From a virus (Duplodnaviria; Heunggongvirae; Uroviricota; Caudoviricetes): DNA of 64,000 nt. Positions 827 to 46,180 of this stretch are shown here, piece by piece. Every line of letters begins with the position of its first letter. Position 1 is the first letter of the stretch. The notes under the pieces are model-generated. The model saw nothing but the letters and a program-made list of their open reading frames with translations, searched no databases and had not been told where the DNA came from. The position numbers were made by a program, and so were the translations under genes. The stretch is from the IMG/VR virus record IMGVR_UViG_2913177423_000001, positions 19,415 through 83,414 of that record. One strand, 5' to 3'.

Positions 827-1318
827 TTGTTATTATTTCGCTTATTTACTATCAATGGGTGTGTTAGAAAAATAGCGCGAAAAAGAAGGCGTCGCAGTGA
901 ATATTCTGAAACATCCCCACATGCCGCAGCTCTCAGAGAACTGGAGAAAAACCCAGATCTAATCAAAAGGAACCATGAGCATTACGAGCAGGTTCGCGTC
1001 CTGGACTGGTTGTATCGCAATATGCGCTATGTGTATGAGCATACTCACGCCACTCCAAACGGCGGTCTGCGAGGCATAAGGACGGCAATAAAGATGGTGG
1101 CAGAAGGCCAAAAGAAGGGATATCCCGATCTTTCTATAGACCTTGCTTGCGGGGGATACCACGGAATGCGCATTGAGATGAAACATGGGAGAAATCGCCT
1201 GACTCCCGAACAACTCGTCTGGATGACTCGCCTCACTGAAGCAGGTTACTACTGCTTTGAGGCGCGCAGTGCCGCTGAAGCCATAAAAGCTATCACGGAA
1301 TATGTTTGTCTTGATTAA
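827..1318 (+). CDS. VRR-NUC (PD-(D/E)XK) nuclease domain protein; start uncertain
   Basis: Residues HEHYEQVRVLDWL...PNGG...GYPDLSI...RIEMK...LTPEQLVW fit the VRR-NUC pattern. The only in-frame start upstream of the domain is a TTG at 827 without an SD; an operator-like 17-mer lies inside at 861. Confidence 0.6.
   Translation: MLLFRLFTINGCVRKIARKRRRRSEYSETSPHAAALRELEKNPDLIKRNHEHYEQVRVLDWLYRNMRYVYEHTHATPNGGLRGIRTAIKMVAEGQKKGYPDLSIDLACGGYHGMRIEMKHGRNRLTPEQLVWMTRLTEAGYYCFEARSAAEAIKAITEYVCLD
861..877 (+). promoter_or_regulatory. operator-like 17-mer GTGTTAGAAAAATAGCG
   Basis: Member of the GTGTTAGAAAATTAATT word family repeated about 16 times in the window. Confidence 0.45.
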
Positions 1319-1332
1319 ACGGAGAAATCGTT

Positions 1333-1533
1333 TTGCGTTTACTTAACGTGGCTGAACTTATCCCTGCTGGTGCTAACGTTGTTGCTCGCCGTCGGTCCTG
1401 GCAGCAACCATTGTGTGTTGAGTTGTCGAAACACAGCAATGGAACAATAGAGGCTCGCAATATTGTTACTGGTGATAAGGTTCACATTACCCCGGAAAGT
1501 ACAGGCGCTGATGATTGGGAGTTTGTACATTGA
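1333..1533 (+). CDS. minimal DUF2829 (Tad2-like) domain protein, 66 aa
   Basis: TTG start 8 nt after GGAG. The pattern ...VARRRSW...TGDK...ADDWEFV matches the DUF2829 signature (G..vaRr.W ... D.lA.DWe.v). Confidence 0.55.
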   Translation: MRLLNVAELIPAGANVVARRRSWQQPLCVELSKHSNGTIEARNIVTGDKVHITPESTGADDWEFVH

Positions 1534-1829
1534 GCAAAAAACATTATGTGAACCTGACGTTTGCTGATGACGCCGGGAGAACGCGGAGCATAACGCTCAA
1601 CACTGCCCGCAAGGTGGTAACCGCGCCGTTAATCCGTGAAGCCCTCAGGGAGCTGGATATGGGTGAGAACTCGGCCCTGTTGTCGGTTAGCTGGCTAGGG
1701 AAAATGTCAGAGAAAGAATACGTAGACGGACTTACTCCAATAACAGCTATGAGACTGCTTTCATTGTTGCAATGGGCTATCGTGCCTTTATGCATCGTGT
1801 ATTTTATCTACCAGGCAATGACACAATAA
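1530..1829 (+). CDS. hypothetical protein with C-terminal transmembrane anchor
   Basis: TTG at 1530 is preceded by GGGAG (8-nt spacing) and overlaps the upstream stop (TTGA). Hydrophobic C-terminus LLSLLQWAIVPLCIVYFIY. The track start at 1515 lacks an SD. Confidence 0.5.
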   Translation: MSKKHYVNLTFADDAGRTRSITLNTARKVVTAPLIREALRELDMGENSALLSVSWLGKMSEKEYVDGLTPITAMRLLSLLQWAIVPLCIVYFIYQAMTQ

Positions 1830-1835
1830 CCGCTC

Positions 1836-1865
1836 AAAAACCCGCCGACTAGCGGGTTTTTTGTT
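1836..1865 (+). terminator. intrinsic terminator
   Basis: AAACCCGC-cgacta-GCGGGTTTTTTG stem-loop plus T-run just after the stop at 1829. Confidence 0.8.
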
Positions 1866-1903
1866 TATCACATCTTTCGCTCTTGTTCTCATGCTAATAA
1901 AAT

Positions 1904-1920
1904 GTGTTAGAAAACTAATT
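1904..1920 (+). promoter_or_regulatory. operator-like 17-mer GTGTTAGAAAACTAATT
   Basis: Word-family member, 12 nt upstream of the 406-aa ORF. Confidence 0.55.
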
Positions 1921-1931
1921 TTGCAAAAGTA

Positions 1932-3152
1932 ATGGGAACTGCAATGAGTCAACAAACTGATACTTCTAATCTGGAAATCATCTCAGCCGCGATTGAAACG
2001 CTGCGGACACAGATCGCCCTTATTCAAAAGCGGAATCCGGGGGATGACCTGTCTAGGCGACTACATGAGAGCGTCATTGCCACTACTGATAACCTGGTCG
2101 CGGAGATCAACCAGCTACTTGAGGAAGGGACGGTTGATTACAACAAGCTGGTGGATCAGTTTGAGGAATATCAGCAAGCTGTTAATGATGGCCTGATTCG
2201 TTTTTCACAAGTCACAGGCGTATCAGCGACAGTTGAAAGCCTGGGCGATGCAGTTAATCAATTTGCCGCTAATATGCGTAGTGAGATCGGCAATCTGGAA
2301 GCGCGTCTTGAACAGGCAAATACACTGCGCAAATCTGCTGAAGCCGATTTGAGCCGTTACAAAAAAGACTATCCGCCCAGCCTGTCAAAACGTCTGGATG
2401 TTGCGGAGAAGGATAACCGCGCACTGAAAAGAGAGCGCCGGGAGCTGAAAGAGCGTTTAACAGAGCTGAATCAGCAATGTATTAAGTATCAAGGTGAAGG
2501 CGTCACTCTGCGTAAGAAGTTAGCAGCTGCGCAGAACATTATTGAAACTCTGAAACGAGAGTGCTCACAGCTTGGGCATGATCTGAATCGCGCTTGTGGC
2601 ATGGGGCAAAGACCAGAGACATTTCCGCTTATGTATGATGGGAGGGAAGCTATTGCCTATATCCATGAGTTTCCGCATGGCCTGGTCGCGGAGACTGGGC
2701 AGCGAGGAGAAGCATTACTGACGGCTAATTACCATCAGCAAATCAGAACTAGCCGCCTGCTGACTATGGATGTGATCCCATCTGTATGGGGAACGCCGCT
2801 TTACTATCGCCTCCCCGGCTTCGAAAAGGACTGGAACAACGACATAGACGAATGTCTGGCAGATAAAATAATGGCGTACCTGGAGACTGATTTCCCACGC
2901 CTGCATCGCCGGATTATGGACTCTAAGGACGCGCCGATCGATGAATTGAAAATGCGCCCAGAGACGCTGGAGGCAATCAAGCAGACGGAGTTTGACACTG
3001 TATTCAGTGTGGCCTGCATTCCAAGCTGTTTCCATGAAAGTATCCCGTTCATGCAAGGCGATCGTCGTCAGGAAATCATTGATGCTTGTCGCGTATGGGC
3101 GAACGAATGGGACAAGAAGAATGGGGGAGTAGAAGATCTTTACGGGAAATAA
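1932..3152 (+). CDS. coiled-coil protein, 406 aa, unknown function
   Basis: Long ORF; the N-terminal half is heptad-like and charged (LEARLEQANTLRKSAEADL...KRERRELKERLTELNQQ). Bracketed by operator-like sites at 1904 and 3154. Confidence 0.75.
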   Translation: MGTAMSQQTDTSNLEIISAAIETLRTQIALIQKRNPGDDLSRRLHESVIATTDNLVAEINQLLEEGTVDYNKLVDQFEEYQQAVNDGLIRFSQVTGVSATVESLGDAVNQFAANMRSEIGNLEARLEQANTLRKSAEADLSRYKKDYPPSLSKRLDVAEKDNRALKRERRELKERLTELNQQCIKYQGEGVTLRKKLAAAQNIIETLKRECSQLGHDLNRACGMGQRPETFPLMYDGREAIAYIHEFPHGLVAETGQRGEALLTANYHQQIRTSRLLTMDVIPSVWGTPLYYRLPGFEKDWNNDIDECLADKIMAYLETDFPRLHRRIMDSKDAPIDELKMRPETLEAIKQTEFDTVFSVACIPSCFHESIPFMQGDRRQEIIDACRVWANEWDKKNGGVEDLYGK

Positions 3153-3153
3153 T

Positions 3154-3170
3154 GTGTTAGAAATTTAATT
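3154..3170 (+). promoter_or_regulatory. operator-like 17-mer GTGTTAGAAATTTAATT
   Basis: Starts 2 nt after the stop at 3152; nearly identical to the site at 13374 (minus). Confidence 0.55.
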
Positions 3171-3309
3171 TCAACATACGAACATGTTGATTGTAGGTGT
3201 AACATAACATAGAATTTTCCTTGCTGGTGGAGCGTTGCCACATTTCGCTTGCTGGGCTTGATAGTCACTTATTGGTTGTTGTTCGCCCACCAGCAAATAA
3301 CAAATTAAA

Positions 3310-3326
3310 GTGTTAGAAAATTACAG
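3310..3326 (+). promoter_or_regulatory. operator-like 17-mer GTGTTAGAAAATTACAG
   Basis: Word-family member at the entry to the non-coding RNA island. A 10-bp stem, TTGCTGGTGG/CCACCAGCAA (3221-3297), lies between this site and the one at 3154. Confidence 0.5.
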
Positions 3327-3526
3327 GTATACAGGGACTCGCTTTGGCACCGAGCAAGCCAAAGTTCGGCAGGTTTAGTGCGTAAAGTGGTTTCAGAGAG
3401 AGCACTTTACGGAGTAAACGACAAGACATGTTGAGCCACGGAAGGTCTTTTTAAGATGTTCATTGATGATGGTCCGGAAGAGAGTAACGGGACTCACCGC
3501 ATCGAATCATCATCAATGCACATCCT

Positions 3527-3692
3527 CAACATTAAGGAGGCGCAGGGTTGGTTTTGTGCTCGCTTTTTTACTGACTCTGAGTCTCCTTAATGTTGCGGTA
3601 ATGCACCTATGCGGATGCGGCCTTGCATTGTGTCTTGAAAGAATGGGGTAAGGCCGGGGATATCCCCAGGGGGAGGCACCCCCGCCGCAACG
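3527..3692 (+). repeat. structured repeat unit, copy 1 (full)
   Basis: CAACATTAAGGAG...CTCCTTAATGTTG stem, CGGTAATGC tail, GGGGG-AGGCA-CCCCC hairpin, then GCCGCAACG. Confidence 0.5.
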
Positions 3693-3912
3693 AACAGCCA
3701 TAGACGGCAGTCGAGTGATGAAAACGTGAAAAGACTTTAAACCTCGTTACGGCTGGCGTGGCAAACGCGACAACCGGGATAGGACGGTGACGGGCGGAGA
3801 GAGTGCCGCATCAAGAAAGAAGCCGACTTGTGATTACTTTCTGCGGGCCTTTGAAAGTGAATCCAGCTCAGGCAGTCGGCTTCTTTCTTGTGTGAGATGT
3901 AGTAGCGTGTTT

Positions 3913-3936
3913 GCCCATCTTCGGGTGGGCTTTTTT
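3913..3936 (+). terminator. intrinsic terminator
   Basis: GCCCATC-ttcg-GGTGGGC followed by TTTTTT. Confidence 0.7.
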
Positions 3937-4119
3937 AGGGTTTTCGTCATTGTTAGCGACTTTGCGGCTGTTTATAAACTGACCATTAAAGTAAATGCAA
4001 ACGATGATCTGATGATGGTAGCGGCCTAATAAGCCTGACGCCACGGGGTATGAGTCGTCCCCCGTCAAAAAATCGACCACAGAGTGTCCCCGTCTGTGTA
4101 TTAGGGAACGGGGAGGCAT

Positions 4120-4397: not shown

Positions 4398-4474
4398 GGT
4401 GGTGTAGCTCAGTAGGATAGAGCAGCAGCCTTCTAAGCTGTCGGTCGGTGGTTCGAATCCACTCACCATCGCCA
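4398..4474 (+). tRNA. tRNA-Arg (anticodon UCU, reads AGA)
   Basis: Cloverleaf folded by hand: acceptor GGTGGTG/CACCATC, D arm GCTC/GAGC, anticodon loop CTTCTAA, T arm GGTGG-TTCGAAT-CCACT, encoded CCA. Confidence 0.9.
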
Positions 4475-4478
4475 AATT

Positions 4479-4554: not shown

Positions 4555-4557
4555 ACA

Positions 4558-5441: not shown

Positions 5442-5638
5442 CAACAGGTAAGAGCATTCTCCTGTAACGGGTTCATATCCCAATCTACAGGTCCACCAAG
5501 AATGCTCTTTCCGTTGCGGTGAATGCGGCTAAGCGCACGCGGAACAGTTAAAACAATCTTCCTTAATGTTTAAGTCAAACATCCCGGCGTTAATTGTTAA
5601 CTGGTTAACGTCACCTGGAGGCACCAGGCACCGCAATC
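5442..5638 (+). repeat. structured repeat unit, copy 3 (full)
   Basis: CAACAGGTAAGAGCATTCT...AGAATGCTCTTTCCGTTG stem, CGGTGAATGCGGCTAAGCGCAC tail, CCTGG-AGGCA-CCAGG hairpin, then CACCGCAATC. Confidence 0.5.
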
Positions 5639-7134: not shown

Positions 7135-7526
7135 TGTACGAGACTACAAAATTAAGCATTCATGAAGCCACCAATATGGAGTGGAATATCGTCACCTGTA
7201 AGATTGTATCGTGTAATGCTGCGCGTACTGATGCAGGCCATAAGAGCACGATAACAGGCTACATGGTAATGGCTTATAGGGGATTGAGAGTTCGCTTTAT
7301 CTGGAAAGCTCGGCAATTGACACCATTCAGAGAGCCGTCAATGCCATTAGAGGTAGAACAGGATTATTTAAGCCTGCCGGAAATAGACGGTGCAACGCTG
7401 GTGGATTCTGATGGTCGTAAGGCTGATTTTGAAGTCAGCTTAAAGGTGGCGCAGGCCGTAATTAATAACTCACGTGGTAAGTGGATCGCTAAGGTAAAAC
7501 ACGTCGTTCGCTTATCTCGCTGGTAA
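7134..7526 (+). CDS. hypothetical protein, 130 aa
   Basis: ATGA stop-start overlap with the upstream gene; no motif recognised. Confidence 0.65.
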   Translation: MYETTKLSIHEATNMEWNIVTCKIVSCNAARTDAGHKSTITGYMVMAYRGLRVRFIWKARQLTPFREPSMPLEVEQDYLSLPEIDGATLVDSDGRKADFEVSLKVAQAVINNSRGKWIAKVKHVVRLSRW

Positions 7527-7557
7527 TGTTAGATAAATGGAATTAATTTTCTAATAT
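7526..7557. promoter_or_regulatory. overlapping inverted pair of operator-like 17-mers
   Basis: ATGTTAGATAAATGGAA (plus) overlaps the reverse complement ATATTAGAAAATTAATT. Sits between the stop at 7526 and the gene at 7635. Confidence 0.55.
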
Positions 7558-7634: not shown

Positions 7635-8027
7635 ATGGAGCATATCAGCAGCGCAGAAATTGCGGATATCATGATTAGGGCTGACTGCTATCTGACAGTC
7701 ACCGAAATCACCACTCTCGCTAAAGAAAAATATCCTCACCTTCATGTTTCACGCGTAAGTGTAACCAACATCATTCGGCATTTTGTGCGGTCAAGCCGAG
7801 CTATTTGTGAGCTTGATGATCGTGTTTACCCACGGAAATACTGGTTGCATGGCCTGAACGGATATCAGTTCAAGGTGCGCGGGCGTACCCCTGAATACGG
7901 CAGTTTGCTGGTTAAAAACTGTAGCAGGAAGTCTGCCGAACTGGCGCGACAAGAGCAGCGCGAGCTGGTGGACATGGCTAATAAGCTGTGGAATGCCGCA
8001 GTTAAAAAGCGTGGTGTTGCTTTATGA
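7635..8027 (+). CDS. putative late-gene activator (positional analogue of P1 Lpa)
   Basis: Small gene directly upstream of pacA and behind an operator pair, as lpa/Op86 is in P1. Assigned by synteny only; no sequence motif recognised. Confidence 0.4.
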   Translation: MEHISSAEIADIMIRADCYLTVTEITTLAKEKYPHLHVSRVSVTNIIRHFVRSSRAICELDDRVYPRKYWLHGLNGYQFKVRGRTPEYGSLLVKNCSRKSAELARQEQRELVDMANKLWNAAVKKRGVAL

Positions 8028-9388
8028 GCCTGGTTAATTGGGAAGAGCACCGCGCCAAATTTATAGCGTTGCGTGAAGAAAAAGGGATCACCGTAAAGGA
8101 ATACTGCGAGCAACACGACCTTAGCTTCAATACCGCCAGAAAGCATCTCAATATGAAAAAAAATGAGGTGCGGTCGCAGGTGAAGACTACAAAAAAAAGC
8201 ACCAAATCACCTGAAAAAAAACGGGCAGGAAGAGCAAAAAAAAGGCCAGAAGAGGGTACAGAAACAACAAAATTTACAGAAACTGACAATTCACAGAGCG
8301 GAAGTTCTTTCCGGAGCATGCCGAGAAAGAAAACTTCGGATCATAAAAATAACGACAATAATAACAATGAGATAAAAGAATCTGTCAGGAGATCATTGCG
8401 CGAAAAAATGGCGAAAATGATCCCCGCCGAAGATAAATGCGCCTCAAAAACCGAGGGATCTTCAGCAATGATCCCTGGCGGTGCTGTGCAGCGTGCCACG
8501 TTGCCCACTACGAGTGTGGCTCGCGACATGATGAAGAACGGCGCAGAAGAGCACCTGCGGTTAGCAATTCAAATGGCGCAAGAACGCGCACTTCAGTACC
8601 AAAGCATTGTTGATCAGGAGGCCGAACGCCTACAGGCGGAGATAGACGCCCTGGGTGATGAACAGCCAGAAGGAATGCACCCTGGGCAGCGACTTCTCGG
8701 TCTAATCAGTGACGCGGCCTACTACATGAACGATTTTATCAGTAGGTTGGCAGCGATATATCAGTCCGAACAAAAGCTGCGACAGGGTGATGAAAAACTT
8801 CGTCAGGGTGCTCGCCAGCAAGCATTCAGAGAGGCCGAGGCCAGAGAAAAACTCGAATTAGCACGCCTACAGGCCGAACAGCGCGGCAAAGAGATTGAAT
8901 ATCGAATTGGCGCTGACGCACGCGCAGCCAGAGTTATCGCCGCCGCTATACGTATGCGTGAGCGCGAGGAACTGGACGATATCGGTGTTGCTGAATACAT
9001 CGAGCGTCAGGGTGTCAGTGTCCCGGCTATCCTCGCGGCGCGCGCGGCAAAAGCTATCGATCTTCTCGAACCGCCAGTTTCTGACATCAATGATGTTGAT
9101 GATGAACAGCTGGACAAAGAGGCAAGGGAGTATGCATTGCTTCAGGCAAACCATTCTCAATGGCTGGCAGAGCGCCGGGCAGATGTGGCTACCATTGTTG
9201 AAGACCTGGGGTGCGGAGATTACGACAGCAATGGCGAGCGTAAGGCTGGGGAATTCGAGGCCAACGACGAAGAGTTAGATATTGACCCTTCGGCAACGGC
9301 TGAAATTTACGGTGATTATGATGCATCAGACGTAGGGTATGACGCCGGAGATGATGATATCGCGATAGAACCTCCGGAGGACGATTAA
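8024..9388 (+). CDS. pacA: PacA-like small terminase / pac-recognition subunit
   Basis: N-terminal HTH-like segment (ITVKEYCEQHDLSFNTARKHL), Lys-rich linker and acidic tail. ATGA-type coupling on both sides; sits directly upstream of the large terminase, as in P1. Confidence 0.7.
   Translation: MSLVNWEEHRAKFIALREEKGITVKEYCEQHDLSFNTARKHLNMKKNEVRSQVKTTKKSTKSPEKKRAGRAKKRPEEGTETTKFTETDNSQSGSSFRSMPRKKTSDHKNNDNNNNEIKESVRRSLREKMAKMIPAEDKCASKTEGSSAMIPGGAVQRATLPTTSVARDMMKNGAEEHLRLAIQMAQERALQYQSIVDQEAERLQAEIDALGDEQPEGMHPGQRLLGLISDAAYYMNDFISRLAAIYQSEQKLRQGDEKLRQGARQQAFREAEAREKLELARLQAEQRGKEIEYRIGADARAARVIAAAIRMREREELDDIGVAEYIERQGVSVPAILAARAAKAIDLLEPPVSDINDVDDEQLDKEAREYALLQANHSQWLAERRADVATIVEDLGCGDYDSNGERKAGEFEANDEELDIDPSATAEIYGDYDASDVGYDAGDDDIAIEPPEDD
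8339..8473. promoter_or_regulatory. candidate pac site: cluster of five GATC (Dam) sites inside pacA
   Basis: GATC at 8339, 8391, 8419, 8457 and 8470 within 135 bp (contexts GGATCAT, AGATCAT, TGATCCC, GGATCTT, TGATCCC). P1 pac is a cluster of TGATCA/G hexamers inside pacA. Confidence 0.35.
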
Positions 9389-10896
9389 TGGCTGGCGGGC
9401 GCAAGATTAAATGCGTCACCAGCGATCCACGCTGGCGCGATTGGGTAATCAAATACCGCTACAACTTTACCAAGGCTGTTATTGATATTTTTGGATTGTT
9501 TCCCTCACCTCAGCAGCAGGAGATTATCCAGTCCGTACAGCAAAAAGGGAGCAGAACCACTGTTACCTCTGGTCACGGTACAGGGAAATCGTCGTTAACG
9601 GCTATGTTGTTGCTGATTTATTTGATTCTGTTCCCCGATGCCCGTGTCATCATTGTTGCTAACAAGATAGGCCAGGTTAAAACAGGCGTATTCAAATACG
9701 TTAAACAGTATTGGGCGAATGCAGTTAAGCGTCACGGGTGGTTACAGACCTATTTTGTCCTGTCTGACACCATGTTTTATGAACGTTCCCGCAAAGGGAT
9801 CTGGGAAGTTCTCTGCAAAGGTTATCGACTCGGTAACGAAGAAGCACTGGCGGGGGAGCACGCGGCACATTTGCTTCTAATTCTGGATGAAGCATCAGGT
9901 ATATCTGATAAAGCGATCGGCGTAATGACTGGCGCTCTGACTGAAGAAGATAACCGAATGTTGATGCTATCCCAGCCAACAAGGCCAAGTGGTTATTTCT
10001 ACGATTCGCACCATTCTCAAGCTAAAACCCCAGACAACCCGAAAGGGATCTGGACAGCAATTGTTCTTAACTCAGAAGAATCACCGTTCGTCACACCACA
10101 ATTCATCAGGCAGAAACTCCTGGAATATGGCGGTCGCGATTCTATTGAGTACATGGTTAAGGTGCTTGGTCAGTTCCCTCGGGAGATTAACGGCTATTTG
10201 CTTGGTCGTGATGAATGCGATCGCGCAGCGCGGCGCAAGGTGTTGTTGGAGAAAAACTGGGGATGGGTGGCAACAGCTGACGTTGGTAACGGGCGAGACA
10301 AGTCAGTTCTTAATATCTGTAAAGTGTCTGGTCACCGGGAAAAGCGGCGTGTTGTTAACTTTAAGATAATGGAAATGCCAGGGACTATGGACCCGCTGGC
10401 TTTTGCTGACTTTATATACAACGAATGCACGCCGGATAAATACCCGAATATTACAATCGCGGTTGACGCTGATGGTTTTGGTTCAGATACCTGTGCGCAG
10501 TTGGTGCGCCGTGGTGCTAATCCGGTACGTATTCGGTGGGGGAAACCCATGTTTTCGAACAAAGACAAGGAGCGTTTTGTTAACCAGCGTGCCTACGCAA
10601 ATATTATGGCTCGTGATGCCATAAAGTCAGGCCGTATGCGTATAGACAGTGACCCTAAAACGGCAGAGCAAGCGTCAAAAATCCCTTTTTTACTGAATGA
10701 AGAAGGGAAGATGGCGATGATGCGCAAAGAGCACATGCGGCAAAAGCTAAACATCAAATCGCCTGACCGATGGGATACCTACTGCTTCACTATGCTGGTG
10801 GACTATGTGCCTGCAAATGAAGATATCGGTGCGGAAATGGCTACCTTCCGCGACCAGGTTCTTGCAGACATAGAAATGCCGGATCTGGATATATAA
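9388..10896 (+). CDS. pacB: PacB-like large terminase subunit (ATPase plus nuclease)
   Basis: Walker A SGHGTGKSS, Walker B LLLILDEASG, 502 aa; TAATG overlap with pacA. Confidence 0.85.
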   Translation: MAGGRKIKCVTSDPRWRDWVIKYRYNFTKAVIDIFGLFPSPQQQEIIQSVQQKGSRTTVTSGHGTGKSSLTAMLLLIYLILFPDARVIIVANKIGQVKTGVFKYVKQYWANAVKRHGWLQTYFVLSDTMFYERSRKGIWEVLCKGYRLGNEEALAGEHAAHLLLILDEASGISDKAIGVMTGALTEEDNRMLMLSQPTRPSGYFYDSHHSQAKTPDNPKGIWTAIVLNSEESPFVTPQFIRQKLLEYGGRDSIEYMVKVLGQFPREINGYLLGRDECDRAARRKVLLEKNWGWVATADVGNGRDKSVLNICKVSGHREKRRVVNFKIMEMPGTMDPLAFADFIYNECTPDKYPNITIAVDADGFGSDTCAQLVRRGANPVRIRWGKPMFSNKDKERFVNQRAYANIMARDAIKSGRMRIDSDPKTAEQASKIPFLLNEEGKMAMMRKEHMRQKLNIKSPDRWDTYCFTMLVDYVPANEDIGAEMATFRDQVLADIEMPDLDI

Positions 10897-10921: not shown

Positions 10922-11959
10922 TTACCAGAGTTTGGCGGCGCGCTGTGTTTGGGAGAAAGTGAACCCGTAACGTTCTTCTATGGTTTTACCGTATCTTTTA
11001 CGGGCATCTGTCAGTTTTATGCCCGTAAGGTCATCTCCGGACATCATCATTACGTCTATTAACTCCAGATCCATTTTATTCAGTCTCGCCATTGCTTCGC
11101 GCGCAGTTTGTATTTTACGCTCAATGATATGGCGAATAGCCGGATCGGCTTCTTCAAGCATTTTGGTCGATTTGTTCTTTAAGCTCTCACTGCGGATATC
11201 GATGTTCCGCAAGATGTATGACTTCGCAACATAGCTTGGTTGGTGCTTCTCCAGATCGCGAACGCGATAAAGACTAAAATCACCAATCAGGCCACAAGGT
11301 ATCGACTCGACCCCAGAATAAATAGTAATGCTGCGACGTTCGCCGACATTATTAACAACGGGTACTGTGGTATCCGGAAGTTTTGCGAAAACTAAGGCGC
11401 CATGTGCGCCGACCCTGAATCGTGACAGAGTATTGCTGTCTTCGATGTTTGTTGTCAGCACGACATCTGTATATCCCTCTTTGCGCGCCCGGTAAATTTC
11501 ACCTTCAGGTTCCGCCGCAAAAAAGCGGCGCTCTTCTTCAAGCGCCCCAACAATTTGTGAAAAAATCTTGTTTTTCAGGCTCTTCTTAATAATTGCGTCA
11601 TACTTTTTGAGCAAATTTTCGCGTGTAAATGAGCGAGTAGTAGTCGCGCTTTGCACAACAATATGCGTGCTTTGATTCGTGTCCTCTATGATGATTGGGA
11701 TCGGAGAATATACAGACTCAACAATGTTAGACGCTTTGCCGTCGGCATTACGGCACAAGTCAACAAAGGCTTTCCATTCTGCGAGGCACTTTTCAGCTTC
11801 TTCTAGTACATTCTGGTCATGCGTTAGTGCAACGTGGCGGAATTCCTCGCCAGCATAACTGGTATCATGGAAAACAGAGTTTGCGACCACCAGCTCTTTC
11901 CACCGTTCAGCGGTTTGCAGGAACCGTTTGTACTCTTTCTCGATCGACTTCTTACTCAT
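10922..11959 (-). CDS. putative immunity repressor (positional analogue of P1 C1)
   Basis: Convergent with pacB and divergent from the recombinase gene, as c1 is in P1. Three operator-like words lie in its upstream region (11972-12166). Only faint sequence resemblance to C1 as I remember it. Confidence 0.45.
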   Translation of the reverse strand: MSKKSIEKEYKRFLQTAERWKELVVANSVFHDTSYAGEEFRHVALTHDQNVLEEAEKCLAEWKAFVDLCRNADGKASNIVESVYSPIPIIIEDTNQSTHIVVQSATTTRSFTRENLLKKYDAIIKKSLKNKIFSQIVGALEEERRFFAAEPEGEIYRARKEGYTDVVLTTNIEDSNTLSRFRVGAHGALVFAKLPDTTVPVVNNVGERRSITIYSGVESIPCGLIGDFSLYRVRDLEKHQPSYVAKSYILRNIDIRSESLKNKSTKMLEEADPAIRHIIERKIQTAREAMARLNKMDLELIDVMMMSGDDLTGIKLTDARKRYGKTIEERYGFTFSQTQRAAKLW

Positions 11960-11971
11960 TATTCCTACTCG

Positions 11972-11988
11972 ATTTAGTTTTCTAACAT
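11972..11988 (-). promoter_or_regulatory. operator-like 17-mer ATGTTAGAAAACTAAAT
   Basis: 13 nt upstream of the ATG of the 345-aa minus-strand gene. Confidence 0.55.
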
Positions 11989-12060
11989 AAAATTACTATG
12001 ACAAATCTATGTCGAATAACAGGGTGAGTAAAGGATCAAGATGCGTTTTTTTATCATCAA

Positions 12061-12077
12061 ATTTAGAAAATTCTGCT
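12061..12077 (+). promoter_or_regulatory. weak operator-like word ATTTAGAAAATTCTGCT
   Basis: Shares the TTAGAAAATT core only. Confidence 0.3.
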
Positions 12078-12149
12078 TAAAAACTGCCAGGCATAACTTA
12101 AAGCCCACGCCAGCAATGCATTGCCCATCTACGCGGGAAGGAAAAAAAT

Positions 12150-12166
12150 TCCTAATTTTCTAACTT
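12150..12166 (-). promoter_or_regulatory. operator-like 17-mer AAGTTAGAAAATTAGGA overlapping the rox-like site
   Basis: Word-family member; overlaps the left arm of the recombination site by 6 nt. Confidence 0.45.
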
Positions 12167-12192
12167 TAGATAATTGGCATTATTTAAAGTTA
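12161..12192. other. rox-like recombination target (14-bp arm, 4-bp spacer, 14-bp arm)
   Basis: TAACTTTAGATAAT-TGGC-ATTATTTAAAGTTA. The arms are inverted repeats with one mismatch (G at arm position 9). Equals the reverse complement of the D6 rox site as I remember it, except for that base. Lies 150 bp upstream of the recombinase gene. Confidence 0.8.
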
Positions 12193-12201
12193 GTATATAA
12201 T
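12174..12201 (+). promoter_or_regulatory. sigma70-like promoter overlapping the rox-like site, pointing at the recombinase gene
   Basis: TTGGCA (12174-12179), 16-nt spacer, TATAAT (12196-12201). Two GATC sites follow at 12204 and 12213. Confidence 0.4.
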
Positions 12202-12344
12202 AATGATCAAACGATCAGTATTGACAGACTCAAAAAGTCATGGTTCGAATCAAGGGCTTAAATTTTAAATTCTCACGGATAACTAGCCTGTCATTTTTTG
12301 TTTTTTCGCGTAGCGACACCAATTTATAGAGGTGAAATGATTAC

Positions 12345-13373
12345 ATGAGTAAACTTATTATCTCCGGTAATCCTGGCATGTTTCTTCGTGATATTGGTGC
12401 TGAGTACCAGGAAGCCGCCAAAAATTTCATGCAGTTCCTTAATGACCAGGGCGCTTACTCACCTAATACACTGCGCGATCTGCGCCTGGTCTTTCACTCC
12501 TGGGCGCGTTGGTGCCACGCTCGTGGTCTTGCGTGGTTTCCGATCTCCCCGGAAGCTGCCCGCGAATACCTGCTTCAACTGCATGATGCGGATCTGGCTT
12601 CAACCACCATTGAAAAGCATTACGCCATGCTCAATATGCTGTTGTCACAATGCGGACTGCCGCAACTCTCTGATGACAAAAGCGTATCCCTGGCGATGCG
12701 GCGCATCCGGCGCGAAGCTGCAACCGAAAAAGGCGAACGCACAGGCCAGGCTATACCGTTGCGGTGGAATGATCTGAAATGGCTCGACGTGTTGCTGTCC
12801 CGTTCCGAGCGGCTGGTGGACCTGCGCAACCGGGCGTTTCTCTTCGTGGCATACAATACCCTGTTGCGTATGGCTGAAATGTCCCGCGTGCGTGTTCGCG
12901 ATCTGGAACAGACTGGTGACACTGTAACGCTTCACGTATCCCACACCAAAACCATCACGACCGCCGCCGGACTTGATAAGGTGCTCTCCCTCCGGACAAC
13001 TGCGGTTCTCAATGACTGGCTGGACGAGTCCGGACTACGTGATCACCCGGATGCGATACTTTTCCCGCCAGTACACCGGAGCAACAAAGCGCGGATCACC
13101 ACCACGCCACTAACCGCGCCCGCGATGGAGAAGATTTTCAGTGACGCCTGGGCGCTGCTGGGTAAGAGTGATGCCACCCCAAATAAAGGCCGTTACCGGA
13201 CGTGGACAGGCCACAGTGCGCGTGTTGGTGCCGCCATAGATATGGCTGAAAAACAGGTGTCTTTGGTTGAAATTATGCAGGAAGGTACATGGAAGAAGCC
13301 CGAAACACTGATGCGTTATCTTCGTCGTGGCGGTGTGACAGCAGGTGCCAATAGCCGCCTCATGGATTCATGA
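12345..13373 (+). CDS. dre: Cre-family tyrosine recombinase, Dre-like
   Basis: Colinear with Cre over its full length (AFLFVAYNTLLRMAE, GHSARVGAA, W...LMRYLRR with the catalytic Tyr). The sequence matches my memory of D6 Dre closely. Confidence 0.9.
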   Translation: MSKLIISGNPGMFLRDIGAEYQEAAKNFMQFLNDQGAYSPNTLRDLRLVFHSWARWCHARGLAWFPISPEAAREYLLQLHDADLASTTIEKHYAMLNMLLSQCGLPQLSDDKSVSLAMRRIRREAATEKGERTGQAIPLRWNDLKWLDVLLSRSERLVDLRNRAFLFVAYNTLLRMAEMSRVRVRDLEQTGDTVTLHVSHTKTITTAAGLDKVLSLRTTAVLNDWLDESGLRDHPDAILFPPVHRSNKARITTTPLTAPAMEKIFSDAWALLGKSDATPNKGRYRTWTGHSARVGAAIDMAEKQVSLVEIMQEGTWKKPETLMRYLRRGGVTAGANSRLMDS

Positions 13374-13390
13374 GATTAAATTTCTAACAC
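13374..13390 (-). promoter_or_regulatory. operator-like 17-mer GTGTTAGAAATTTAATC
   Basis: Starts 1 nt after the recombinase stop codon and upstream of the 13448 operon. Confidence 0.5.
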
Positions 13391-26089: not shown

Positions 26090-26121
26090 GTGTTAGAAAA
26101 TCAATTTTGAATATCTAACAA
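26090..26121. promoter_or_regulatory. overlapping inverted pair of operator-like 17-mers in the divergent control region
   Basis: GTGTTAGAAAATCAATT (plus) and TTGTTAGATATTCAAAA (minus). Located between the leftward operon (start 26050) and ref (start 26169). Confidence 0.6.
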
Positions 26122-27246: not shown

Positions 27247-27352
27247 GAAAACACACTGTTGCGCCCTGGCATTATCGTGGGGTATATTTCTACGGCACCT
27301 TAGAAAAACGGGTGCCGGGATTGGTCTCCCGGTAATGTCAAAGGCGACACAT

Positions 27353-27374
27353 AGACGCCGCAAGCGTCTTTTTT
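27353..27374 (+). terminator. intrinsic terminator inside the immI-like leader
   Basis: AGACGC-cgcaa-GCGTCT followed by TTTTT. Confidence 0.7.
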
Positions 27375-27538
27375 GTTGTCGGCGCACTCGCACACCTATC
27401 AATGGTGGGCTGTGTGGTGGCTTCCTCGGAAGCGCCGGTTCCCTTTGACGCCGGTAAGACCAACTCCACACAGTCCACCGCCAGTAAGATTGGTCTCTTC
27501 GGCGGTGGTATCGTTCACTGTCAAAGGAGGCTGCCAAT

Positions 27539-30573: not shown

Positions 30574-30596
30574 GGAAATCACAAACTGCACATAAT
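30574..30596 (+). promoter_or_regulatory. late-promoter-like box GGAAATCACAAACTGCACATAAT
   Basis: 20 of 23 positions identical to the box at 62260; family consensus is GAAATCACAAA, N6-7, then a -10-like hexamer. Confidence 0.55.
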
Positions 30597-31386: not shown

Positions 31387-31715
31387 TCACATCAGTAGCT
31401 TTGTTAACTCCCTCAATACCAGGTAGAAGAGTAACAAAAATACTGACGCCAGTATTTGCGTGGTCAATGAAGCGTTCATAAACAGATCAATTAGCATTAT
31501 TAATTCGAAAATAACATCCATGTCATTCGCTCAGTTTAATTTTTAATCTACTGCCAGTAAGTAATGAAGCTGGCCCCGCATAAAGATTAATGAAAGTCAC
31601 TTGTCACCAGTGAGGGGATTTATGAATCACATCTCCCTGAGCTGGTGGCCTGTCTGTTTCTCGCATTTCACACCCTGCATACAGTTTCCCCAGGTTATGA
31701 CTGAGGATTTTTGTT

Positions 31716-38077: not shown

Positions 38078-38120
38078 CAATTGTGTTAGATAATTGAATA
38101 GAATTTTCTAACACAATTGG
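38078..38120. promoter_or_regulatory. 43-bp palindrome containing an inverted pair of operator-like 17-mers
   Basis: CCAATTGTGTTAGATAATTGAATAGAATTTTCTAACACAATTGG, located 7 nt upstream of rdgC. Confidence 0.65.
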
Positions 38121-41890: not shown

Positions 41891-41897
41891 ACTGAAC

Positions 41898-42285: not shown

Positions 42286-42291
42286 ACCTCG

Positions 42292-43248: not shown

Positions 43249-43272
43249 CTTCTTGCTCCACTTCTGAGACAC

Positions 43273-43430
43273 ATTTGAGAATCAAATCATGATTTTAAAA
43301 GAGAAGGAATCGAAAATCCACACAATTCGAGATGAAAGAGAGTCGTTATTGAGATTATTTTGAGAATATCTTTAACCACTTTCTGGGTTTGATGCAAAGG
43401 TGAGAACAATTCGAGAATAAAACGAGAATT
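43273..43430. repeat. parC-like iteron array (YGAGAAT words, partly at 11-bp phase)
   Basis: TGAGAAT 43276, CGAGATG 43328, TGAGATT 43350, TGAGAAT 43361, TGAGAAC 43401, CGAGAAT 43412, CGAGAAT 43423. Confidence 0.6.
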
Positions 43431-43449
43431 TTAAATATTTCGTGATTTC
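43428..43449 (-). promoter_or_regulatory. late-promoter-like box on the minus strand (GAAATCACGAAATATTTAAAAT)
   Basis: Matches the family spacing with a TAAAAT -10; points through parC towards parM. Confidence 0.3.
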
Positions 43450-43466
43450 ACTCTCTCTTTGAGTGA

Positions 43467-43489
43467 CGAAATAACAAAGTGATGACAAT
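43467..43489 (+). promoter_or_regulatory. late-promoter-like box CGAAATAACAAAGTGATGACAAT
   Basis: Family member 25 nt upstream of the PAAR gene. Confidence 0.5.
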
Positions 43490-43513
43490 AGGCGAATAAC
43501 CAGGAGATGAAGA

Positions 43514-43798
43514 ATGAGCGCAATAGCCACCAGCGACACACTTTGTTCCGGTCACGGAGGATTCCCGCCGCGGCTGGTTGCTGAAACCGTTCCCTGGTTC
43601 ACCGTCAACGGTAAGCCAGTTGTTGTGGATGGTGCCATGTTCCCCAGCCATACAGACGGTAACAGCACACATCCGGGATCGGCTGTATCGACGCGGGCAT
43701 GGTATTCAATAGGTGGAAAGGGAGTCGTCTGCGTAGGCGATCCGCTTTCTTGTGGTTCTGTTATCGCCAACGGCGAGGATATTTTTCAGGTCGCATAA
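43514..43798 (+). CDS. PAAR-domain spike-tip protein
   Basis: CSGHGG...VNGKPVVVDGAMFPSH...H...IGGKGVVCVGDPLSCG fits the PAAR repeat pattern. Confidence 0.75.
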   Translation: MSAIATSDTLCSGHGGFPPRLVAETVPWFTVNGKPVVVDGAMFPSHTDGNSTHPGSAVSTRAWYSIGGKGVVCVGDPLSCGSVIANGEDIFQVA

Positions 43799-44601
43799 TG
43801 CTTGATTCAATAGGTGAAGTTAAAGCCTTCCAAATTCTGTCCGGCGCTGGTGCCTCCACACCGGAATCAATATCCATAAGCCGGGCGGCTTCTTCAAAAG
43901 CTTCGTCACTCGCAAGCGACATACAGGAAATGGTTCATCCTGATAAAACCTATCCTGATTCAGTGTCTGCCTGGACGACTCAATTGCTTGGATTTTCCGA
44001 ACAACTCAATGAGGCAAGCAAGGCATCATCAGCCCTGGCTGACTCTCTTTCCCCATACACGACGCCATCAGAGCTGTTACAGATGAAGATTGGCTGGGAG
44101 TGCCACGCAAAAGGTAATGAACTGATCCCCACGCCAGCGTTCGCCCTGGTTGAGGGGATGGGGAATGTTTCCATACCGCAATCACTAACGGACGCATTGG
44201 CGGCGCTGAAACTTGACGATCTGAATACCGCCATGAACGCCATAAACGCAAAAATTGAAGCTGCCGGGAGTGCTGGGGGTGATAGTGATGGTGGACAGGC
44301 TGGTGGTGGGGCAGCTCAGGCTCCGGACATTACTCAGGATGAAATTGATGATTTACGGGAAGCTGTAACAGTAGCTGAAGTTTCACTCTCCGGGATTAAT
44401 TCAGCAAGTGAGAGTGTCGTAGCCCTTGCTGACCGCATTAAAACGTCAACAACTCAGGCCGCCAAGGGGCTAGAGAACGCTGTAGCCATCACCTTAACAG
44501 GTTCTCTACTGGGCGATGCAGTAATGAGTCCGGCAATCAGTTTAATCATGCCACAAGGCGTTATCGATGCGCTCCAAAAGAGCACCAAAAAGGAACCATA
44601 G
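43798..44601 (+). CDS. hypothetical late protein, 267 aa
   Basis: ATG overlaps the PAAR stop (TAATG); the track start at 43699 would overlap the PAAR gene. Confidence 0.6.
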   Translation: MLDSIGEVKAFQILSGAGASTPESISISRAASSKASSLASDIQEMVHPDKTYPDSVSAWTTQLLGFSEQLNEASKASSALADSLSPYTTPSELLQMKIGWECHAKGNELIPTPAFALVEGMGNVSIPQSLTDALAALKLDDLNTAMNAINAKIEAAGSAGGDSDGGQAGGGAAQAPDITQDEIDDLREAVTVAEVSLSGINSASESVVALADRIKTSTTQAAKGLENAVAITLTGSLLGDAVMSPAISLIMPQGVIDALQKSTKKEP

Positions 44602-44656
44602 CAGCACCACTTAGGCACATAAACGGATGTAAATTGGTACATGTTTAACACCAAAA

Positions 44657-45130
44657 GTGAACCTGAAGAGGATGGTTTTGAAAAAGATAATTTTGATTGT
44701 AATTGCGCTTTTAGCCATTTCTGGAATTTACCGAACAACGACGGCAGTTATCGAACACATCAGGTATGTCCGGTCGCTTGAAGACTCAAAATCACTACTG
44801 GAAAGCACAAACAACACGCTTTCTACCGCATTACAGTTAAGTGAGAACGCTCGCTCTGCCATGCAGGCCGAAAACGAAAGAGTCAAAGCTCTGGAAAAGG
44901 AGTACCAGCGAAAAACAGCAGAACTGAATACCAAACTGATCAAACAACGGGAGGAAAGCCAGAATGAAATCACTCGTCTTGAAACTGCGTTACGCCGTGC
45001 TGGGATTAACGATGTGCGTGTGCCTGATGACGTTATCAGGATGCAGCGGGAACGGGCAAAAGCCATCAACCAGCGTGCCAGTGAAAATTACCGTAGAAGC
45101 CACCAGCAAGCCGCAGGCAAATCTGATTGA
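44657..45130 (+). CDS. i-spanin (Rz-like)
   Basis: N-terminal TM anchor KKIILIVIALLAISGIY followed by coiled coil; the o-spanin gene is overlapped in another frame. True start is probably the TTG at 44678 (GAAGAGG with 6-nt spacing) or the ATG at 44672. Confidence 0.7.
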   Translation: MNLKRMVLKKIILIVIALLAISGIYRTTTAVIEHIRYVRSLEDSKSLLESTNNTLSTALQLSENARSAMQAENERVKALEKEYQRKTAELNTKLIKQREESQNEITRLETALRRAGINDVRVPDDVIRMQRERAKAINQRASENYRRSHQQAAGKSD

Positions 45131-45296
45131 TTACTCCCCTTGTTTAGTGCCAGAGGACACGCCAGTGCTGTTAAACAAGTATCCAACATACACAGAACAG
45201 TTATTCAGCACGATCGATGAATGCAACCAACGAAACGCACTGAATAACCAAAGGAATAGGGAGATTTGGGAAGGGAAGGGGGATCACGGCTCCTGA
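44964..45296 (+). CDS. o-spanin (Rz1-like lipoprotein), overlapped architecture
   Basis: Lipobox LMTLSGC and a Pro-rich mature part; starts inside the i-spanin gene in a different frame. Confidence 0.7.
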   Translation: MKSLVLKLRYAVLGLTMCVCLMTLSGCSGNGQKPSTSVPVKITVEATSKPQANLIDYSPCLVPEDTPVLLNKYPTYTEQLFSTIDECNQRNALNNQRNREIWEGKGDHGS

Positions 45297-45742
45297 AGCC
45301 AGATATCCTGGCTGTCAGCTTCTTCGAAACCGTGGCAGACGTTAAAGTCACTCAAACGATACTGACGCTGACGGCCTCTATTTCGCTCATGCCAATGCAT
45401 ATATCCACCAGCAAATGCCAGCGGGCAATCGCTATAGTCTATATAGCCAATACCATTCCCCAGGCGGGCCTCGCGTGCGCCAGCTTTCCAGGACAACAAA
45501 AACGAGTCACGATCTGCCAGCATGACAACAAAATCATCCGGCTCACCTATGCAGTGAAGAATCCCTGCTTTACATAACTGTTTTAGCGCCTTCGATTGGC
45601 CCAGGATGTCTTCGCCATAATACTGAAAACAATCATCAACAACAGCGGGATAACCAGCAGGGGGATTCAGGCTGGTTGGTATCGCTGACGCGATTGCCAG
45701 CATTAAGCGATATTGTGATTTTGATGGATTTGCGTGACTCAT
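45284..45742 (-). CDS. hypothetical protein (about 152 aa)
   Basis: ATG at 45742 follows AGGCAGGAAAAA; the alternative ATG at 45769 overlaps the upstream gene. Confidence 0.55.
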   Translation of the reverse strand: MSHANPSKSQYRLMLAIASAIPTSLNPPAGYPAVVDDCFQYYGEDILGQSKALKQLCKAGILHCIGEPDDFVVMLADRDSFLLSWKAGAREARLGNGIGYIDYSDCPLAFAGGYMHWHERNRGRQRQYRLSDFNVCHGFEEADSQDIWLQEP

Positions 45743-45756
45743 TTTTTCCTGCCTGT

Positions 45757-46149
45757 TCACTGTCGCCATGCGTTTTTTAACTCTGGGATATCAGCCATTT
45801 CAATTAACTTTCGCAGTCCAGCACTGACTTTCCCATTGCCAATCATAGCAAGCCAGTCTCTCACAGCTTTCGGCATATAGAGCGTAGCTGTTACCGGCTC
45901 TTCAACTCTCGCGGGACATCCGCATACAGGCCATTTAATTGATTCCATAACTTCGGAGGCCGGGGTGAGGGCGGGAACATTAAGAATATCTCTACCAGAA
46001 AACTGGATGACGATTCGTTCAGCGAGGGAGAGTATCTCACTTTCAGCAAGAATTGATGCCAGTTGCGCCTCAACAAGAAAGCGGCTCGTTGTGTTCAGGG
46101 AGTGGCTTTTCGCGCCATTTTTATACGAAACAAAGATCCGATACGCCAT
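45757..46149 (-). CDS. hypothetical protein, 130 aa, operator-controlled
   Basis: ATG ORF with an operator-like word 15 nt upstream. Confidence 0.6.
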   Translation of the reverse strand: MAYRIFVSYKNGAKSHSLNTTSRFLVEAQLASILAESEILSLAERIVIQFSGRDILNVPALTPASEVMESIKWPVCGCPARVEEPVTATLYMPKAVRDWLAMIGNGKVSAGLRKLIEMADIPELKNAWRQ

Positions 46150-46163
46150 AACCGTAATGATTT

Positions 46164-46180
46164 ATGTTAGAAAATTAAAA
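46164..46180 (+). promoter_or_regulatory. operator-like 17-mer ATGTTAGAAAATTAAAA
   Basis: Word-family member in the divergent region between the 45757 operon and the head-like gene. Confidence 0.5.

Follow-up and report, generated by a model that had tools for sequence, protein, structure and literature searches.

A dispersed asymmetric 17-bp word as the probable operator of a C1-type repressor in a D6-like plasmid prophage

Introduction

What is the function of a 17-bp word that recurs throughout the non-coding DNA of a P1-family element? The stretch of DNA analysed here, called the window, is 64 kb long and by its sequence is a D6-like P1-family plasmid prophage, with 86–89% DNA identity to phage D6. 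It carries many copies of the word GTGTTAGAAAATTAATT. In the immC system of phages P1 and P7 the C1 operator is a dispersed, asymmetric 17-bp site with the consensus ATTGCTCTAATAAATTT (PMC8546580). The word in the window is best explained as the operator of this element's own C1-type prophage repressor, and we put the probability of this reading at about 0.85. A heteroimmune C1 regulon is a known kind of system, of which this element would be a new example, although one that may have been described earlier. The D6 records (NC_050154 / MF356679, and AY753669 for the immC region with Dre/rox) annotate c1, rox and cix but not the operators.

Results

The repeated word and its placement

Allowing up to 3 mismatches, GTGTTAGAAAATTAATT has 11 matches in the window against 0.22 expected from dinucleotide-preserving shuffles, and none of 100 shuffles reaches 11. 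The exact core TGTTAGAAA is also found 11 times (0.55 expected), and the core consensus is (G/A)TGTTAGAAAATTAA. In an unbiased search the commonest 12-mer of non-ORF DNA was the same word, which was the top motif. A weight matrix scores 15 strong sites at 17.3–26.7 bits, and nothing else in the window exceeds 12.1. The matrix was built from the sites, and as far as the seed sites are concerned the test is circular. Together with the weak site at 12061 the strong sites form a set of dispersed, asymmetric, non-coding copies of about 17 bp:

861..877, +, single site GTGTTAGAAAAATAGCG upstream of pmgM; 20.3 bits
1904..1920, +, single copy 11 nt before pmgS, which starts at 1932; 25.8 bits
3154..3170, +, single copy 2 nt past the pmgS stop and ahead of the tRNA/tci unit; 26.1 bits
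3310..3326, +, single copy before the tRNA island; 22.2 bits; D6 copy at 8911
7526..7557, 7526+/7541−, inverted pair upstream of lpa; 17.3 and 23.8 bits
11972..11988, −, copy nearest to c1, 12 nt before its start; 25.5 bits
12061..12077, +, weak second site ATTTAGAAAATTCTGCT upstream of c1; below the matrix threshold
12150..12166, −, copy directly adjoining the left arm of rox, the recombination site; 17.9 bits
13374..13390, −, single copy 1 nt past the dre stop and ahead of the orf2-dut unit; 23.5 bits
26090..26121, 26090+/26105−, inverted pair separating ref (26169..) from the leftward operon; 25.6 and 18.1 bits
26742..26758, −, single copy that overlaps the stop codon of ref and comes before the immI region; 26.0 bits; D6 copy at 75978
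38083..38114, 38083+/38098−, inverted pair lying 12 nt before hrdC/rdgC and the methylases; 24.0 and 22.0 bits
46164..46180, +, single copy with the leftward 45757..46149 unit on one side and capsid gene 23 on the other; 26.7 bits; D6 copy at 54202

An earlier note on this DNA had counted about 16 copies, with 12061 as a weak one, and every coordinate that it listed does carry the word. It had also described the sites as almost all intergenic and some of them as inverted pairs, and both descriptions agree with our data. Specifically, the centres of all 15 strong sites lie outside ORFs of at least 120 aa, and such DNA makes up 27% of the window (P = 3e-9). Three sites touch shorter mechanical ORFs, in stretches that are intergenic in the D6 annotation. 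The inverted pairs are three in number and have identical geometry, with a + copy at x and a − copy at x+15, 32 bp in total. Comparison of the surroundings of the copies showed no extension of similarity into the flanks. The late structural block (46.3–64 kb) has no site. An extra exact core at 61817(−), within a late gene and without a flanking match, is probably there by chance.

D6 has 17–19 sites in orthologous places, plus sites flanking repL; it has a site at 76631 in the place of the ref pair, and its hrdC pair is at 64114/64130. The window lineage differs from D6 by the extra site 12150 abutting rox, which is lineage-specific and overlaps the outer bases of TAACTTTAGATAATTGGCATTATTTAAAGTTA, and by the missing ppp/pdcB pair, within the stretch seen. 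The core of 861 is kept in D6 and in the diverged relatives L031/L034, and a 1-nt indel in L014 argues that this stretch is non-coding. Conservation at 1904 is 0.98 in the site and 0.88 in the flank; at 13374, a site found in D6, L006, L055 and L056, it is 0.98 against 0.91. The 3154 site is kept across a neighbouring indel in L032. The right half of the lpa pair (7541–7557, −) is strong and kept in all relatives; the left half is degenerate and retains TTAG only. Site 11972, which presumably serves c1 autoregulation, has a conservation of 0.98, also in the lineage with 72% C1 identity, where the flanks diverge. At the weak 12061 site the core TTAGAAAA is kept in three lineages, and L055 and L056 have a full-strength site at the equivalent position in the same orientation.

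The C1 homologue and its neighbourhood

The protein proposed to recognise the word is encoded beside site 11972:

10922..11959, −, c1 homologue of 345 aa, proposed repressor on the basis of homology and locus

Gene order at this locus is pacB (9388..10896), c1, rox (~12163–12194) and dre (12345..13373), which is the P1-type arrangement; unlike in P1, however, no ORF of coi size (at least 60 aa) lies between c1 and the recombinase gene in the window. The protein is 89% identical to D6 C1, labelled 'phage repressor protein' in the D6 record. It falls in PHROG 1678 together with P1 C1, has a precomputed match to Pfam PF27008 (Phage_P7_repressor_C1) and aligns collinearly with P1 C1 at 21% identity. 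It also matches NCBIfam phage_rep_C1 (NF041318) over residues 7–241 (235 residues; E = 1.6e-5, 24.6 bits). Judged from these alignments, the 345-aa protein is a distant homologue of P1 C1. It is important to note how distant this similarity is (identity 21%; 24.6 bits, where the NCBIfam equivalog cut-off is 500 bits), and this counts against our reading. The window protein is also longer than that of P1 (345 versus 283 aa) and has a C-terminal extension of about 50 residues.

Further along the window, a tRNA island has tRNAs at 4398, 4479 and 6027 on the + strand, and lpa lies at 7635..8027. Downstream of site 26742 are isrK (27295–27374) and a C4 RNA (27398–27485; Rfam match of 73.7 bits), followed by icd and ant homologues according to the D6 annotation. 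This immI module (C4 RNA, icd, ant) is a P1-type second immunity module, present in the window as in P1.

Comparison with P1 and with relatives

Operator positions of P1 were taken from the annotation of AF234172. P1 Olpa, just past the stop codon of the upstream gene, has its equivalent in the same place at 7526–7557, and Oref, upstream of ref, at 26090–26121; Omat overlaps the ref stop codon, and so does 26742. Odmt, before uhr-hrdC-dmt, corresponds to 38083–38114, OpmgRa/b, upstream of pmgR-pmgS, to 1904, and O26, upstream of pmgL-pmgM, to 861. The divalent Obanab, before the tRNA-tci-ban operon, corresponds to 3154/3310 and the Op99 set to 11972/12061. Thus the sites precede orthologues of genes that C1 controls in P1, namely lpa, ref, hrdC-dmt, pmgS, pmgM, the tRNA operon and c1, and in D6 also repL. 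Moreover, P1 operators often start where the preceding gene has its stop codon, as Olpa, OpmgRa, OpmgT, Orlf and Omat do, and so do window sites 3154, 7526, 13374 and 26742. Both elements have more than 15 dispersed non-coding copies, some as overlapping inverted pairs, but P1 has one such pair (Obanab) and the window three, with an offset of 11 bp in P1 and 15 bp in the window. The sites after dre (13374), beside rox (12150) and at gene 23/orf52 (46164) have no counterpart in P1.

The operator sequences themselves are unrelated except for a common TTAG/CTAA core. The P1 consensus ATTGCTCTAATAAATTT has no match in the window with up to 3 mismatches, and the window word gives no site above 14.4 bits in P1. 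Window and P1 share a tRNA module at 88% identity, but each element has its own resident operator type in front of it, a natural swap. The earlier note had proposed operators like those of P1 C1 with a different sequence, recognised by the 345-aa protein at the c1 position, and had placed them at genes that are here pmgS, the tRNA island, lpa, c1/dre, ref, immI and hrdC/methylases. The analysis supports this: P1 operator positions are matched, the P1 consensus is absent, a C1 homologue lies between pacB and rox/dre, and the gene assignments are right.

Among relatives whose C1 is 72%, 52% and 44% identical, the core is kept where the flanks diverge. Elements with a C1 of about 30% identity bear a different word, CCTTAGAAT, at the same places: upstream of rdgC, ref, c1 and lpa, downstream of the recombinase gene and around pmgS. 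The 13374 position also has the clade-specific word in Leclercia and Pantoea elements. TGTTAGAAA is found 11, 12, 74 and 10 times in four clade-A groups and 0–1 times elsewhere; CCTTAGAAT is found 9 and 30 times in the Leclercia and Pantoea clades and is absent from clade A and P1; the P1 word is found 18 times in P1 and 0–5 times elsewhere. Clade D (L039, L041, L042) has no recognisable word. Across the relatives compared at the sequence level, the word tracks the C1 clade. Co-variation alone does not single out C1, because most other genes also vary between clades with different C1 proteins.

Discussion

Every computational test that was run agrees with, and so supports, the reading of the word as a P1-C1-like operator. 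It is improbable, in our estimate, that the word is bound by another protein co-inherited with the D6 lineage, a phage regulator or a host nucleoid-associated protein, with C1 recognising something else. Such an explanation would be helped by the remote homology to P1 C1, by whole-genome divergence, which confounds the co-variation with C1 clade, and by further regulators annotated in D6, e.g. orf72 'transcriptional regulator'. However, the sites match the places of P1 C1 operators, even to the detail that one of them overlaps the stop codon of ref, and no other repeated non-coding word of comparable number was found as a candidate C1 operator. In addition, a clade A site lies 12 nt from the c1 start and the clade-B word lies beside c1 in clade B, as expected for autoregulation. 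An idle repeat, either a mobile or recombinogenic remnant or a product of AT-rich intergenic composition, is disfavoured, and we rate it as the least probable explanation. The word is AT-rich, as intergenic DNA is, and one site abuts rox, but 11 copies against 0.22 in dinucleotide-preserving shuffles, the fixed pair geometry and the copies without extended flanking similarity argue against it, as does the core kept at orthologous positions from 44% to 100% C1 identity while the flanks change.

There is very little probability, too, that the word is a promoter element, i.e. an extended −10-like TGnTAGAAA for the host polymerase or a box for the late activator Lpa. TGTTAGAAA resembles TGnTATAAT at 4/6 hexamer positions, and most single sites (861, 1904, 3154, 3310, 11972 and 46164) are co-directional with the downstream gene. 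The hexamer, however, is without the conserved final T, 13374 and 26742 point in the opposite direction to the genes that follow them, and at three loci the copies form symmetric pairs; 1904, 11972 and the 38083–38114 pair end only about 12 nt before a start codon. As to a late box, late promoters would be expected upstream of late operons, co-directional and at fixed distance from the transcription start. Site orientations are mixed, the word precedes lpa itself, and the P1 late box is not enriched in the window. None of the late operons pacA, 26, 7, 22, sit and R has a site upstream; since the word is absent there and from 46.3–64 kb, it is not the late box.

If the word is the C1 operator, the 345-aa protein would bind each asymmetric 17-mer as a single molecule, and two molecules would sit head to head at each 32-bp inverted pair. 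Bound C1 would act at the host sigma-70 promoters of early and accessory units, stopping transcription either as it initiates or early in elongation. Targets would include lpa (the late-gene activator), hrdC-methylases, ref with the divergent leftward operon and the unit running into immI, and also the tRNA/tci unit, pmgM, pmgS, the unit after dre and c1 itself. Sites also flank repL, the gene for lytic replication, in the complete genome of D6. With lpa and repL off, the element would remain a plasmid prophage. Its operator sequence is unlike that of P1, and it should therefore be heteroimmune to P1. Counting against this scheme, a consensus promoter scan placed a −10 inside a site at hrdC only (GATAAT at 38089–38094); other sites lie 17–40 bp up- or downstream of the best match, and promoter-like matches are no commoner than in shuffles. 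More specifically, 861 lies 25–41 nt downstream of TTTACA-16-TATTAT at 809–836, TTGATT-17-TAGAAT at 3187–3215 is near 3154, and 46164 is downstream of a leftward TTGTGA-18-TAAAAT. By eye, a leftward TTGATT-16-TAATAT (8/12 matches, below the scan threshold) overlaps the ref pair.

The predicted structure of C1 resembles Tus only, with low TM-scores of 0.33–0.38, and the two proteins have no sequence similarity. Escherichia coli Tus binds asymmetric 23-bp Ter sites as a monomer. A monomer on an asymmetric site, assumed for C1 by analogy, would be common to both systems; they differ in that Tus-Ter arrests replication forks and C1 is proposed to repress transcription at many sites. We suggest tentatively, from the model and with rather less than even confidence, that C1 repressors of P1/D6-type phage-plasmids could be Tus-fold proteins, monomers that read an asymmetric site through interdomain beta strands. 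Such a fold would explain both the asymmetric operators and why no helix-turn-helix is recognised in C1. The clade words are ATTAGAGCAAT in P1, TGTTAGAAAA in the D6 type and CCTTAGAAT in the Leclercia and Pantoea types, and the TTAG core is present in all examined clades except clade D, with varying flanks. With the core fixed and the flanks varying, the C1 family would be a natural series of matched repressor/operator pairs. If this is true, the series could reveal both a recognition code and orthogonal groups of immunity.

Probable operator sites in the window

Our results indicate, with a probability of about 0.85, that the repeated asymmetric 17-mer GTGTTAGAAAATTAATT (the word) is the operator of the C1-type repressor of this element, as in the scheme of P1. 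The word has 11 matches in the window at up to three mismatches against 0.22 expected, and none of 100 dinucleotide-preserving shuffles reaches 11. The exact core TGTTAGAAA is found in 11 copies against 0.55 expected. When aligned, the copies share about 14 informative positions, (G/A)TGTTAGAAAATTAA, with no conservation beyond them. A weight matrix made from the copies gives 15 sites at 17.3–26.7 bits, the next best score in the window being 12.1, a separation that is circular as a test because the matrix was built from the same sites. Therefore, a blind search was also run for the most repeated 12-mer, with two mismatches allowed and in the DNA outside long ORFs only. Its top motif was the word, both in the window and in most of the related loci. 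The word is present at every position listed in an earlier note, and 12061, described there as weak, is a weak site here too.

ORFs of at least 120 aa occupy 73% of the window, and the centres of all 15 sites lie outside them (P = 3e-9), in agreement with the intergenic placement proposed earlier. Three sites touch shorter mechanical ORFs in stretches that the annotation of Escherichia phage D6 has as intergenic. Three inverted pairs (7526/7541, 26090/26105 and 38083/38098) have a common geometry with a 15-bp offset and a 32-bp span. No sites of the word were found in the late structural block (46.3–64 kb); an extra exact core at 61817, inside a late gene and without flanking match, is treated as chance. 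Site 861 lies within the annotated 5' end of pmgM (window 827–900; D6 11359–11412). Since the related locus L014 has a 1-nt insertion at this stretch, the true pmgM start is probably a GTG near 897.

The element and its C1 homologue

The window is 86–89% identical to D6, a P1-family plasmid prophage, and 89–93% identical to many plasmids of E. coli, Salmonella and Shigella. The relevant features are:

10922..11959 (-), gene for the 345-aa D6 c1 homologue, flanked by pacB and by the rox site with the dre recombinase
27398-27485, C4 antisense RNA (Rfam) of the second immunity module, immI, followed by icd and ant homologues
27295-27374 (+), isrK-family RNA (61 bits, above gathering), directly upstream of the C4 RNA
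5515-5635 (+), STnc100-like match in the tRNA/tci region (42.4 bits, just under the gathering value of 47)

C1 is only 21% identical to P1 C1 (283 aa), being collinear with it over about 240 residues and having an extra C-terminal helical segment. The two proteins are in one PHROG. The match of C1 to NCBIfam phage_rep_C1 (E = 1.6e-5) is far below the equivalog cut-off of that model, and the newer Pfam family PF27008, Phage_P7_repressor_C1, is a hit in precomputed form only; a local Pfam scan returned no families. In PLSDB this C1 is carried by 152 plasmids. On the Enterobacter IncF plasmid L007 (NZ_CP058198.1, 20001–20417) only the C-terminal 140 residues are present, beside IS5 and a truncated terminase; the piece is what remains of a D6-like prophage after decay. 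H89, from Enterobacter, was considered as an N-terminal domain swap of C1 and rejected as an IS-truncated remnant.

Correspondence with the P1 operators

P1 has 22 C1 operators with an asymmetric 17-bp consensus, and its repL and lpa are under C1 control (PMC8546580). We took the P1 operators from the annotation of AF234172 and extracted their sequences for comparison.

Table. P1 C1 operators, their location in P1, and the corresponding sites in the window
Olpa, upstream of lpa: 7526-7557
Oref, upstream of ref: 26090-26121
Omat, overlapping the ref stop codon: 26742, also overlapping the ref stop codon
Odmt, upstream of uhr-hrdC-dmt: 38083-38114
OpmgRa/b, upstream of pmgR-pmgS: 1904
O26, upstream of pmgL-pmgM: 861
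Obanab (divalent), upstream of the tRNA-tci-ban operon: 3154 and 3310
Op99 group, at c1: 11972 and 12061

The likeness extends to the placement at gene ends: many P1 operators (Olpa, OpmgRa, OpmgT, Orlf and Omat) start where the preceding gene has its stop codon, as do 3154, 7526, 13374 and 26742 in the window. Overlapping inverted pairs are likewise found in both, one in P1 (offset 11) and three in the window (offset 15). Sites 13374 (after dre), 46164 (between gene 23 and a leftward unit) and 12150 (abutting rox) are without a P1 counterpart. The complete D6 genome has 17–19 sites at orthologous places, and there they also flank the lytic replication gene repL on both sides. The P1 consensus has no match in the window at up to three mismatches, and the best site for the word in P1 reaches no higher than 14.4 bits. 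The earlier proposal of operators behaving like those of P1 C1 with a different sequence is supported by the matching neighbourhoods. In a base-by-base alignment of D6 and P1 operators the TTAG/CTAA core is the sole common part. Orientation of the syntenic sites leaves the register unsettled, and therefore we do not claim homology of the operator sequences.

Conservation and co-variation with C1

Nine site regions were aligned across 20-odd related loci. The core is constant while the flanks diverge at 861 and 1904 in loci L031 and L034, beside an indel at 3154 in L032, and at 11972 in a lineage with 72% C1 identity. Mean conservation of site and flank in the best cases was 0.98 and 0.88, 0.98 and 0.93, and 0.98 and 0.91, respectively. 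Excess over the flanks was not found for the degenerate left half at lpa, the weak 12061 and the lineage-specific 12150. Chance or composition as the origin of the word is ruled out by the shuffles together with this conservation.

Relatives whose C1 is 72%, 52% or 44% identical still have TGTTAGAAA at corresponding places, i.e. after the recombinase, upstream of c1 and lpa, and on both sides of pmgS; upstream of c1 there are two such sites in the same orientations as in the window. In elements with a C1 only about 30% identical the word is absent. In a Leclercia plasmid of this kind, CCTTAGAAT(T/C) lies in front of rdgC, in front of ref (two copies), behind the recombinase and beside c1. A Pantoea plasmid has (C/T)CTTAGA(A/T)TT at lpa, at c1 and after the recombinase, and also as inverted pairs flanking pmgS on both sides.

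Table. Copies of the operator words among 45 viral-contig loci and plasmids and genomes (clade A, relatives with the core TGTTAGAAA)
TGTTAGAAA: 11, 12, 74 and 10 in the four clade-A groups; 0-1 elsewhere
CCTTAGAAT: 9 and 30 in the Leclercia and Pantoea clades; 0 in clade A and P1
P1 word: 18 in P1; 0-5 elsewhere

The counts separate the words cleanly. The clades are whole diverged genomes, and therefore these counts do not isolate C1 as the cause. The same confounding is what speaks for a different, co-inherited protein binding the word; beyond it this explanation has no support, and we regard it as improbable. A natural swap helps here: the tRNA modules of the window and P1 are 88% identical, yet in front of each stands the operator type of the resident c1. 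The TTAG core is common to all clades examined but clade D (L039, L041 and L042), a fourth C1 clade 31–45% identical to the others. None of the three operator words is found in clade D, and a search of its c1 surroundings gave no repeated word. As for the P1-like DNA itself, four patches 85–90% identical to P1 (3909–4954, 6017–6290, 17367–18100 and 63328–64000) cover the tRNA/tci module, the humD-hot region and the tail fibre, the rest of the genome being below 70%, which suggests that P1-type and D6-type elements have recently exchanged modules.

Two promoter readings of the word were rejected. For a late promoter, the P1 late −22 box ACAAGTGACTT shows no enrichment (17 matches, 16.8 expected), and the word is absent upstream of late operons. 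For an extended −10, the hexamer is without the final T, the copies run in either orientation and three loci consist of symmetric pairs. One exact copy of the P1 late −22 box is present at 31594–31604 (-). A separate motif, GAAATCACA, occurs at 30575, 34816, 53241, 54870 and 62261 (+), precedes several late genes (26/mat region, 7, pmgB and R) by 40–60 nt, and may be the −10/start part of the late promoters of this lineage; RAAATCACA has 10 copies in the window against 1.9 expected.

C1 structure

Comparison of C1 with the PDB by single sequence and by profile gave nothing relevant. An AlphaFold model built on 18 aligned sequences reached a mean pLDDT of 84.5 and a pTM of 0.53. Foldseek against the PDB returned four significant matches, all of them E. 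coli Tus on Ter DNA; their E-values are 9.5e-8 to 1.5e-6 over about 272 aligned columns, compared with 0.11 for the hit that follows. TM-scores are low (0.33–0.38) and sequence signal is absent; the viral structure library BFVD contained no significant match to the model. Tus acts as a monomer and grips its asymmetric site by means of beta strands between its domains, a mode that would suit an asymmetric operator. No paper linking C1 and Tus was found in the literature searched. We treat the likeness only as a lead.

Implications

Systems of this kind are familiar from P1, and the known picture of P1-type prophage silencing is left as it is. What our comparison adds is, for the D6 lineage, a putative operator sequence with a map of its sites and, more widely, the apparent replacement of the operator with the C1 clade while the genomic positions stay fixed. 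In GenBank, the D6 records do not annotate operators, and a literature search for the word or D6 operators, whose scope did not take in the D6 genome and 2004 immC papers, gave nothing relevant. The map and the predicted C1 regulon are testable in D6-like phage-plasmids, which are frequent among E. coli, Salmonella and Shigella, and heteroimmunity to P1 is predicted. Replacement of this kind would account for a constant control logic of the genes while operator sequence changes together with the repressor. Matched repressor/operator pairs from several clades are possible orthogonal switches and material for the study of C1 DNA recognition.

Proposed mechanism and promoter context

It is likely that C1 would occupy each asymmetric site, with two molecules at the inverted pairs, and would hold off early and accessory promoters, above all that of lpa and, in the full element, that of repL. 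A site 12 nt from its own start codon would allow C1 to curb its synthesis. Promoters were sought by six consensus scans, a weak kind of evidence whose few matches are not enriched over shuffles. On that basis, a −10 lies within the hrdC pair, 861 and 46164 are 25–45 nt downstream of promoter-like matches, and 3154 and 7526–7557 are about 20 bp upstream of one. Visual inspection also shows a leftward TTGATT-16-TAATAT overlapping the ref pair.

Site 12150, absent in D6, overlaps the outer bases of the left arm of rox. The best sigma-70-like match of the c1–dre spacer, TTGGCA-16-TATAAT (11/12; 12174–12201), lies within rox and points toward dre. The interval 11960–12344 has no ORF of at least 60 aa; because the largest is 46 aa, this position seems to lack the coi-type antirepressor gene of P1. 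Chi, GCTGGTGG, ranks first among the repeated non-coding words of many Pantoea-type relatives and has 43 copies in the window against 1.7 expected (e.g. 3223, 3287 and 26017), several of them close to operator sites.
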